From IMG/VR virus record IMGVR_UViG_3300031949_001708, positions 1,936 to 65,935 of that record: a DNA stretch of 64,000 nt; one strand, given 5' to 3'. The notes below the pieces were generated by a model. The model was not told the origin of the DNA and searched no databases. It saw only the letters and a list, made by a program, of their open reading frames with translations. The translations under genes were made by a program, and so were the position numbers. Below, piece after piece: positions 8,985-10,019 of the stretch (its first letter is position 1; the number at the start of each line of letters is the position of its first letter). Origin of the DNA: a virus (lineage: Duplodnaviria > Caudoviricetes).

Positions 8985-10019
8985 ATGGTAACGACGGAAG
9001 CGCCCGAGCGGATCGTGAGTCCACTTCGCCATCTCCATGACACGGCGGTCTCGATCGAGAAGTTCCGGATCTCGGTCGGGAACCGCGTCTCGGCCATTAG
9101 CAAAGGCGTCGACGGCGCGGTCGCGCCCGTCCCGGACGTCTACGAGCGGCTACTCGCCCAGGCCGAGGGGATGGAGACGGAGATCGACCGGGCGATCGCG
9201 CGGGAGTTGGACGCGTACCCTGTCTGGGACTCGTGGCTCCGGCACGTCCGAGGGATCGGACCGTCGCTCGCGGGCCAGATGCTGGCGCTCCTGCTGCCGC
9301 CCATCCCGACGAAGGGGCCGAGCTCGTGGTACCGGGCGGCGGGGCTGGCGCCCGAGACGCGAGCGGAGGGCGAGAGCCGCCTGCCGCGGCCGCGGGCCGT
9401 CCGGTGCCCGGACTGCGCCTCCACGACCTTCCGGATGAAGGAGGGGGCGCGGACCTGCACGGAGTGCGGACGGGCGCTCGCGCCTGGCGAGGGCAAGCTG
9501 GCGTACCATCCGTGGCTCCGGCGCTGCCTCTACAACGTGAGCGACAGCTTCGTGAAGAACGGCCTGTACTACCGGGAGGTCTATGACACGTCGAAGTCGC
9601 AGCTCTTCGGCCTCCACGCGTGGAAGGCGGCGGCGCTGTACAACCGCTGGGCCGGCACGTCCGGGAGCGTGGCGCTCGACATGCTCGTGACGACATACGG
9701 CCGCGCGGCCGTCGAGAAGGCGGCGAGCAAGACGCGGGCCGCGACGAAGAAGGACGAGCCGCCCGAGACGGTCGAGTTGTGGGCCATTCGCCCCACGATC
9801 GCCAAGACGATCGCGATCGAGGGCATCAGCGACCCGGCGTGGCCGCTGCACCGGATCGAGAGCGTCGCGCGCTGGAAGATGGCGAAGTTCTTCTTGGCGC
9901 ATCTTTGGGAGGCTTGGGCTGCCGCCGAGGGCTGGACGCCGCGGACGCCGTACGTCGTGGAGAAGCTGGGCCACCAGCTCGTGCCGCGGCCCATGCCGGA
10001 GGGCAAGGCCAAGATTTAG
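8985..10019 (+). CDS. TasA-like Nop-domain (IS110/IS116-related) RNA-binding protein without nuclease domain
   Basis: LR.L.D....IEK.RI..GNR coiled-coil start, WL..VRGIGP.LAG, SSW...AGL, SF.K, YR..YD..K, A..KM.K.FL.HLW..W...EG...PY; no N-terminal DEDD/RuvC; flanked by arrays. Confidence 0.85.
   Translation: MVTTEAPERIVSPLRHLHDTAVSIEKFRISVGNRVSAISKGVDGAVAPVPDVYERLLAQAEGMETEIDRAIARELDAYPVWDSWLRHVRGIGPSLAGQMLALLLPPIPTKGPSSWYRAAGLAPETRAEGESRLPRPRAVRCPDCASTTFRMKEGARTCTECGRALAPGEGKLAYHPWLRRCLYNVSDSFVKNGLYYREVYDTSKSQLFGLHAWKAAALYNRWAGTSGSVALDMLVTTYGRAAVEKAASKTRAATKKDEPPETVELWAIRPTIAKTIAIEGISDPAWPLHRIESVARWKMAKFFLAHLWEAWAAAEGWTPRTPYVVEKLGHQLVPRPMPEGKAKI

Follow-up and report, generated by a model that had tools for sequence, protein, structure and literature searches.

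The locus considered here raises the question of what kind of protein is encoded by a phage gene, tasA, that lies among short tandem repeats, and of what the two inserts carried by this protein could be for. The gene is found in the IMG/VR record IMGVR_UViG_3300031949_001708 (Duplodnaviria; Caudoviricetes), and the window, i.e., the whole stretch of DNA analysed, comprises 64 kb of this single 65.9-kb virus record. The analysis established that the tasA product is a TasA protein in the sense of Faure et al., and that its inserts, a four-cysteine ribbon and a helical module, are common and independently swappable add-ons among its relatives rather than the mark of a unique subtype. Regarding their role, the most reasonable reading, held with moderate confidence, is that of a dimeric RNA-guided binder or roadblock of the dual-repeat type, in which the two inserts are optional additions likely forming a larger clamp on unwound DNA.

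Identity and architecture of the tasA product

The gene was recognized from its open reading frame (ORF), from the matches of its product in the PDB and from a structural model. Homologues sharing 41–86% identity were retrieved by database search, and the comparison with PDB sequences by phmmer recovered 9mty_A, which belongs to the solved TIGR-TasR complex, with an E of 5.6e-12, and TasH with an E of 0.011. The model of the product (AlphaFold2, 109-sequence alignment) reached a mean predicted local distance difference test (pLDDT) score of 95.5, and its superposition gave a VIA Z of 22.0 with TasR 9mty_B (root-mean-square deviation of 2.6 over 209 residues) and of 19.6 with TasH 9w04_B over 235 residues, both well above the unrelated entries. 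The values were 14.6 over 183 residues for the IS621/ISCro4 recombinases and 8.1 for archaeal Nop5, while Foldseek returned an E of 7e-8 with the same model. The segments published for TaTasR (wedge G210–K230, insertion 1 Q247–T249 and insertion 2 V267–S269; Xu et al. 2026, bioRxiv 10.64898/2026.09.09.750476), together with the phmmer anchors, assigned the ribbon to the wedge and the helical module to insertion 2, insertion 1 being minimal (N192–G193). The gene and its parts are as follows:

8985–10019, + strand: tasA coding sequence, 344 amino acids (aa) plus stop; nuclease-free TIGR-associated Nop-domain protein
9021–9212, + strand: coiled-coil helices, residues 13–76 (model helices 13–40 and 51–75), aligned to the TasR/TasH coiled coil
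9213–9347, + strand: first part of the Nop C-terminal domain, residues 77–121, with the GIGPSLAG helix-hairpin-helix and the AAGL motif, aligned to 9mty_A 143–193
9348–9509, + strand: wedge region, residues 122–175, with the putative zinc-ribbon cassette at residues 138–167 (nucleotides 9396–9485)
9510–9602, + strand: helices alpha4–alpha5, residues 176–206, with the Y183/K191 pair, aligned to SpTasH 197–228
9603–9839, + strand: insertion 2 module, residues 207–285, about 69 extra residues in five short helices
9840–10016, + strand: last part of the Nop domain, residues 286–344, with the predicted processing dyad Y323 (9951–9953) and H330 (9972–9974)

According to both the ORF and the model, the coiled coil starts at residue 13, leaving only 12 residues ahead of it, and no Pfam match to a nuclease domain (HNH, RuvC) was obtained in the tasA product at E values up to 10. 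The fold match to TasR and TasH, the 12-residue N-terminus and the lack of a nuclease match therefore identify the protein as a TasA and not as an IS110 transposase. Thus, a preliminary description of this DNA, which had called the protein TasA-like and had seen no RuvC/DEDD or HNH residues in it, was borne out on both points by the fold, the sequence and the flanking TIGR arrays described below. By homology to the solved Tas proteins, the coiled coil of residues 13–76 is the probable dimerization element.

The chance that the protein is an RNA-guided transposase of the IS110 family, or a decayed fragment of one, is practically negligible. Such an identity could be suggested by the label "transposase" of PHROG 4285 and by the fold shared with IS621 and ISCro4, whose Z of 14.6 is nevertheless far below those obtained with TasR and TasH. 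Besides, the 12 residues preceding the coiled coil leave no DEDD/RuvC-like N-terminal domain, no match to PF02371 was found at E values up to 10, the corresponding region aligns to the Tas CTD5 with its Y/H dyad, and the gene is flanked by TIGR arrays instead of insertion sequence ends. The protein consequently does not group with the IS110 transposases, an outcome that the preliminary description had left to be checked, and a transposase identity is refuted by domain content and flanking arrays.

The residues on which the activity of Tas proteins relies in published systems are also recognizable. Y323 and H330 align in phmmer to Y289 and H296 of SpTasH, the pair reported to catalyse guide processing without metal, cutting the precursor within the edge repeat (PMC13421893). 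H330 was found in 109/109 relatives and Y323 in 106 of them, so that the pair is predicted from the sequence to be the guide-processing dyad. Likewise, Y183 and K191 align to W203 and K211 of SpTasH, an aromatic/basic pair that stabilizes the DNA unwinding junction (bioRxiv 10.64898/2026.08.11.744272); position 183 is Y, W or F in 99/109 relatives, and position 191 is K or R in 104/109. In the same 109 sequences, G90 and G120 never vary, and G92 is almost invariant.

The putative zinc-ribbon cassette and the insertion 2 module

The first insert follows the AAGL motif (residues 118–121) and has the form C141-x2-C144-x13-C158-x2-C161, with the knuckles C141-P-D-C144 and C158-T-E-C161, exactly the CPDC-x13-CTEC that had been described after the AGL motif. 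The cysteine codons start at 9405, 9414, 9456 and 9465, and this motif holds four of the five cysteines of the protein. In the alignment of close relatives, the ribbon is a clean cassette of about 30 aa inserted between RLPRPR and GEGK..YHPW, two conserved motifs that directly adjoin each other in the compact relatives, and the model predicts strands at residues 149–152 and 155–158, with block-mean pLDDT values of 91–97. All four cysteines and their 2/13/2 spacing are kept in 13 relatives that have the same 56-aa wedge, and since the intervening residues vary while this spacing is kept, the motif is not due to chance. None of the Pfam zinc-ribbon families exceeded its threshold, the best being PF11781 with 18.5 bits against a cut-off of 27.1. 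Therefore, the cassette is classified by its motif and predicted shape as a putative zinc ribbon outside the named families. The word zinc does not occur in the primary TIGR-Tas papers searched for it, and a full-text search combining TIGR-Tas and zinc returned only papers, mostly reviews, that by title or abstract concern other genome-engineering topics.

The second insert is the helical module at insertion 2. K204 and W286 enclose 81 residues, where compact close relatives have 12, which yields about 69 extra residues; 84 residues lie between YREVYDTSK (196–204) and HRIESVARWKM (289–299), where about 70 extra residues had been noted beforehand. In the model, the module is formed by the helices 213–223, 227–238, 240–250, 263–268 and 272–279, and it reached a pLDDT of 87 when folded alone. 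Searching its fold against all PDB representatives gave no convincing match, and Foldseek found nothing at E ≤ 0.001. In the ESM Atlas there was neither a match above 0.9 nor a named family. The best PDB hits, the C-terminal helical domains of KsgA/Erm proteins, had a Z of only 3.9, which is within noise, and no fold was assigned. A homologous insert is present in 18 of 61 close relatives.

Distribution of the inserts among relatives

The two inserts had been proposed to be unique to this subtype, a proposal that did not hold once the alignment and a census of relatives were considered. The census comprised 188 relatives of at least 200 residues, obtained from two database searches and almost all devoid of a long N-terminal extension; a wedge was counted as Cys-rich if it had 44 or more residues and at least three cysteines, and insertion 2 as long from 40 residues onwards. 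A Cys-rich enlarged wedge was found in 46/188 relatives, a long insertion 2 in 50/188 and both in 12/188, the counts for distant relatives being approximate because their anchors come from an automatic alignment, whereas the close clade can be read directly from the alignment. The Cys-rich wedges were of several kinds, namely the CxxC-x13-CxxC cassette, ribbons placed at the wedge start, CxxC...CxC forms with about 50 residues between the cysteine pairs, and three-cysteine forms. In the alignment of close relatives, each insert is either cleanly present or cleanly absent, and the 2x2 table of the two inserts in the close clade (35/12/12/6) revealed no association between them. A tree built from the core columns of 61 proteins required at least 12 changes of the Cys-rich wedge and at least nine of insertion 2, numbers that are rough since the tree is weakly resolved, and supported sister pairs differed in insert state, e.g., P0004 and P0008. 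Both inserts are therefore common in TasA proteins and are gained or lost independently of each other. The accession strings of the clade and the repeat sequences were not found within portions of the supplementary files of Faure et al., which says little.

Such a mosaic distribution, with frequent gain or loss, could also be expected if the inserts were near-neutral decorations without a particular part in target binding, for instance loop stabilizers tolerated at permissive sites of the surface. This explanation, to which a small but real chance is conceded, is in line with the many unrelated kinds of Cys-rich wedge across the family, with the arrays that compact relatives keep and with the lack of a recognizable fold in the helical module. 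However, carriers down to about 31–40% identity retain the four cysteines as well as several residues of insertion 2 (F, H, W, K, P, G), both modules are confidently folded, and Cys-rich modules arose repeatedly, in several forms, at the same functional loop, which suggests selection and not drift.

TIGR arrays and guide architecture

The tasA gene is surrounded by tandem repeats with a period of 36 nt, listed below with the terminator-like hairpin that follows them and with a distant copy:

7763–8240, + strand: TIGR array 1, 13 guide units of 36 nt
8790–8943, + strand: TIGR array 2, four guide units; its end lies 42 nt ahead of the tasA start codon
10013–10670, + strand: TIGR array 3, 18 guide units; its first edge repeat is truncated at the 5' end (AGCGG, from 10018) and shares sequence with the tasA stop codon
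10676–10701, + strand: intrinsic-terminator-like hairpin that immediately follows the last, degenerate edge repeat and has an 11-bp stem (nine G–C pairs) and a T-rich tail
26593–26693, + strand: orphan mini-array with two full units and a degenerate one, built of the same repeats, 16.6 kb downstream of tasA between phage genes

Every unit consists of an edge repeat TGGCGAGCGG, an 8-nt spacer A, a loop repeat TGGAGAACGG and an 8-nt spacer B, in a fixed 10+8+10+8 geometry that is respected by the 37 units; 35 of these flank tasA, the remaining ones belonging to the orphan mini-array, and all lie on the tasA strand. It was previously reported that dual-repeat arrays end in a truncated edge repeat plus a terminator (PMC12045711), and the hairpin after array 3 thus sets the array strand as the + strand, that of tasA. 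Following the published logic (PMC12045711), the loop repeat is read as UGGAGAACGG, i.e., UGG-AGAA-CGG, with one pair (G3–C8) and an A-rich AGAA centre, whereas the edge repeat UGGCGAGCGG, i.e., UGG-CGAG-CGG, has a second G–C pair, as both G3–C8 and C4–G7 can form. Box D is UG, as published, and box C is CGG instead of CCA in both repeats. The published description holds that edge and loop repeats share box D and box C and allows co-varying departures of the boxes (PMC12045711), to which the CGG of the window arrays corresponds. An array of the distant relative L014 uses repeats ending in CCA. Box C therefore varies within the family, yet it matches between the edge repeat and the loop repeat of one locus.

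Some units recur. The whole guide unit with spacer A CCTGGAAC and spacer B GAGAAGGC is duplicated between array 1 (7835–7880) and array 3 (10517–10562), and spacer A AGGCGGGA with a degenerate loop repeat is common to 8123 and 10589; the units common to arrays 1 and 3 point to unit duplication or recombination between arrays. The first unit of the orphan mini-array has the same spacer B (TTCAAGGA) as the array 3 unit at 10301 and a different spacer A. No guide unit was found inside tasA. When the 37 spacer pairs were searched against the 65.9-kb phage genome in both two-strand arrangements, no self-target was found at zero or one mismatch, and the counts at two to three mismatches equalled those of shuffled spacers, two control arrangements having been run as well. 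Similarly, no target with up to one mismatch was detected in eight related loci (L001–L008, 86 kb).

The 36-nt period corresponds to 12 codons, and for this reason the arrays stay open as reading frames, encoding a ...ENG....ASG... peptide at 7780–8082, 10048–10314 and 10336–10590, so that gene callers can extend or invent ORFs over them. The called N-terminus of the relative P0016 is a translated array. On the minus strand, overlapping with both tasA and array 3, there is an ORF of 589 aa (9150–10919), which almost certainly results from the 67% G+C content and does not represent a gene.

Whether the inserts accompany a particular kind of guide was verified in related loci, eight from public assemblies (L001–L008), among which every combination of the inserts is represented (both, the zinc ribbon alone, insertion 2 alone and neither), and six from IMG/VR (L009–L014); the duplicate L009 was left unscanned, resulting in 13 scanned loci. 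Dual-repeat arrays with the 36-nt period were identified in 11 of these 13, most of these loci having repeats similar to TGGCGAGCGG and TGGAGAACGG whatever the insert state, and among the loci with a clear consensus the repeats were near-identical in the presence of both inserts, one or neither. These observations indicate that the inserts do not adapt the protein to a different guide shape. Such an adaptation had some grounds, considering the contacts of the wedge loop with box C and the clade-specific insertions that were reported to co-vary with tigRNA features in stem-loop Tas proteins (Xu et al. 2026, bioRxiv 10.64898/2026.09.09.750476), but it is rendered very improbable by the identical 36-nt period of carriers and non-carriers and by their near-identical 10-nt edge and loop repeats wherever a consensus is readable. 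In a part of the same preprint, dual-repeat Tas proteins are stated to keep a compact core with minimal variation, a statement that sits uneasily with the insert variation observed here.

Proposed role of the inserts

Previous studies demonstrated that the wedge loop of TaTasR separates and caps the displaced strand (PMC12045711; bioRxiv 10.64898/2026.08.11.744272) and that the PateTasR wedge loop sandwiches box C bases. In SpTasH, the wedge loop and an insertion 2 β-hairpin, provided by two protomers, approach each other and thereby shut the substrate groove; they also form the docking site of the HNH domain (PMC13421893). Both inserts of the window protein enlarge these two groove-closing elements, and both segments are mildly basic (isoelectric point of about 9), for which reasons a larger clamp is favoured. 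The preliminary idea of DNA-clamping or partner-binding modules is accordingly plausible as far as the positions of the inserts are concerned.

In the proposed mechanism, two TasA copies would dimerize through the coiled coil and hold one 36-nt tigRNA with the composition 5'-AGCGG, spacer A, UGGAGAACGG, spacer B, UGGCG-3', after the Y/H dyad had presumably cut the guides out of the arrays. The dimer would then unwind 16 bp of target, one 8-nt spacer pairing with each strand, and, being devoid of a nuclease, the complex could act as a sequence-specific roadblock or repressor. This would be comparable to MbTasA, which was shown experimentally by reporter assays and electrophoretic mobility shift assays to be an RNA-guided repressor (bioRxiv 10.64898/2026.09.09.750476). 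The four-cysteine, probably zinc-binding ribbon would stiffen and lengthen the wedge loop, which caps the displaced strand and contacts box C of the guide, while the helical module of about 69 residues would replace the short hairpin at insertion 2. Together, they may create a larger and stiffer clamp at the unwinding junctions, resulting in a longer residence on the target.

Several points weigh against this proposal. Among close relatives, many are missing one insert or both while their arrays are intact, from which it follows that the core function requires neither insert. A search of the 65.9 kb of the phage and of the eight related loci gave no natural target beyond chance, and repression has been shown for TasA of the stem-loop type only, not for the dual-repeat type (bioRxiv 10.64898/2026.09.09.750476). 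Moreover, zinc binding is suggested by a motif for which the Pfam zinc-ribbon models stay below their thresholds, and the contacts that the ribbon and the helical module might make, whether with DNA, RNA, the other protomer or nothing, are deduced from position alone.

Neighbouring genes and the possibility of a recruited partner

Three further genes lie close to tasA and its arrays:

8299–8550, co-oriented: RAMA-domain ORF (PF18755, 37.1 bits, above the cut-off)
8550–8783, co-oriented: small Cys-rich ORF, which together with the RAMA ORF splits the upstream array into arrays 1 and 2
10660–11994 as listed, directly after the array 3 terminator: fusion of a ParB-like N-terminal domain (PHROG 620, E 1.3e-10) with an N6/N4 DNA methylase

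With the listed start at ATG 10660, the methylase gene would share sequence with the last repeats and with the terminator; ATG 10777 is therefore the probable real start. The gene of the terminase large subunit lies 3.3 kb downstream of tasA, and its product has matches of only 26–28% identity among known phages. The closest relative with a long contig is the syntenic locus L001, whose TasA is 82% and whose terminase is 93% identical to those of the window, and which keeps the ParB-like methylase at the same position. Its array region (L001:4473–6376) includes two detected upstream stretches about 30 nt apart, and the RAMA and Cys-rich ORFs were not found in it by tblastn, indicating that they are not conserved partners of TasA. 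No spacer is common to the arrays of L001 and those of the window, which, at 82% and 93% protein identity, implies a spacer turnover much faster than protein divergence.

These neighbours bear on another explanation, in which a partner working in trans would dock onto the inserts, for example a nuclease, a methyltransferase such as the ParB-like N6/N4 enzyme, the RAMA protein or a host factor, with TasA as an RNA-guided recruiter. The same two positions that dock the HNH domain in SpTasH (PMC13421893) are those enlarged in this nuclease-free protein, the ParB-like methylase gene follows array 3 both in the window and in L001, and TasA-ParB operons were reported by Faure et al. Even so, the explanation is considered unlikely, albeit worth keeping in mind. 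No neighbouring gene is common to the insert-carrying loci, the RAMA and Cys-rich ORFs being already absent at 82% TasA identity, and the methylase was seen only in the window and in L001, past the terminator and beside the terminase genes, in an order common to two related phages. Furthermore, the inserts occur independently of each other, which would be unexpected for two halves of one docking site. By description, the TasParB of the published TasA-TasParB operons (Faure et al. 2025, fig. S14) has a C-terminal dimerization domain and is operonic, whereas the ParB-like protein of the window has a methylase in that place and its gene lies past a terminator. The narrower proposal, that the wedge ribbon and the insertion 2 module form a landing pad bringing a separate enzyme, e.g., the ParB-like methylase, to a site specified by the guide, is quite improbable; if true, it would represent a natural RNA-guided recruiter, performing for instance RNA-guided methylation or silencing, and not a passive roadblock. 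The larger clamp on unwound DNA remains the preferred reading of the two inserts.

Comparison with known systems

The first description of TIGR-Tas systems dates from 2025, and their development into compact programmable DNA binders is in progress. In published surveys, dual-repeat Tas proteins appear as a compact Nop core with little variation, and insertions are discussed mainly for stem-loop systems. The present finding reveals no new kind of system. What it adds is that dual-repeat TasA proteins of phages have gained structured modules time and again, namely several Cys-rich kinds that are probably zinc-binding and a helical one, at two loops expected to line the DNA-unwinding groove, and that these modules are gained and lost independently while the guide is unchanged. 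Natural close relatives with both modules, one or neither consequently offer a ready-made test of what these loops contribute to affinity, residence time and partner recruitment, and their comparison could guide the engineering of TasA repressors and activators.

The closest known counterpart is the dual-repeat TasA of Flavonifractor plautii (FpTasA, PMC12045711), which is likewise a phage-borne, solo protein made of a coiled coil and a Nop domain without a nuclease. Its type of locus has the same alternating short repeats and spacers, the same 36-nt unit, arrays upstream and downstream of the gene and a terminator at the end (PMC12045711). Compared by description, the FpTasA locus has 9-nt spacers and a CCA box C, against 8 nt and CGG in the window, and the window TasA differs by the four-cysteine wedge ribbon and the helical insertion 2 of about 69 aa. 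TaTasR (PDB 9MTY), the best structural match, has the same coiled coil, Nop core and dual-repeat 36-nt guides; however, it carries an N-terminal RuvC domain, uses 9-nt spacers and has a wedge of 21 residues (G210–K230) and an insertion 2 of three, whereas the window TasA has no nuclease and presents 56 and 81 residues between the matching anchors.

SpTasH, from Salicola phage CGphi29 (PDB 9W03/9W04, 21KL), shares with the window TasA the 8-nt spacers, the Y/H dyad, the aromatic/basic pair and a structured element at insertion 2, which in SpTasH lines the DNA groove together with the wedge loop. In contrast, SpTasH has an N-terminal HNH domain, its insertion 2 is a short β-hairpin, and no zinc site has been described in its wedge. 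The stem-loop TasA proteins (PlTasA, MbTasA, BlTasA) are nuclease-free like the window TasA, which differs from them in having dual-repeat guides and keeping the Y/H pair; in PlTasA, accessory hairpins are arranged around the unwinding junction, one of them at the wedge position (bioRxiv 10.64898/2026.08.11.744272). Finally, the IS110 recombinases IS621 and ISCro4 share the coiled coil and the RNA-binding Nop-like fold with the window TasA, but they have DEDD and recombinase serine domains and are bounded by transposon ends, where the window has guide arrays.

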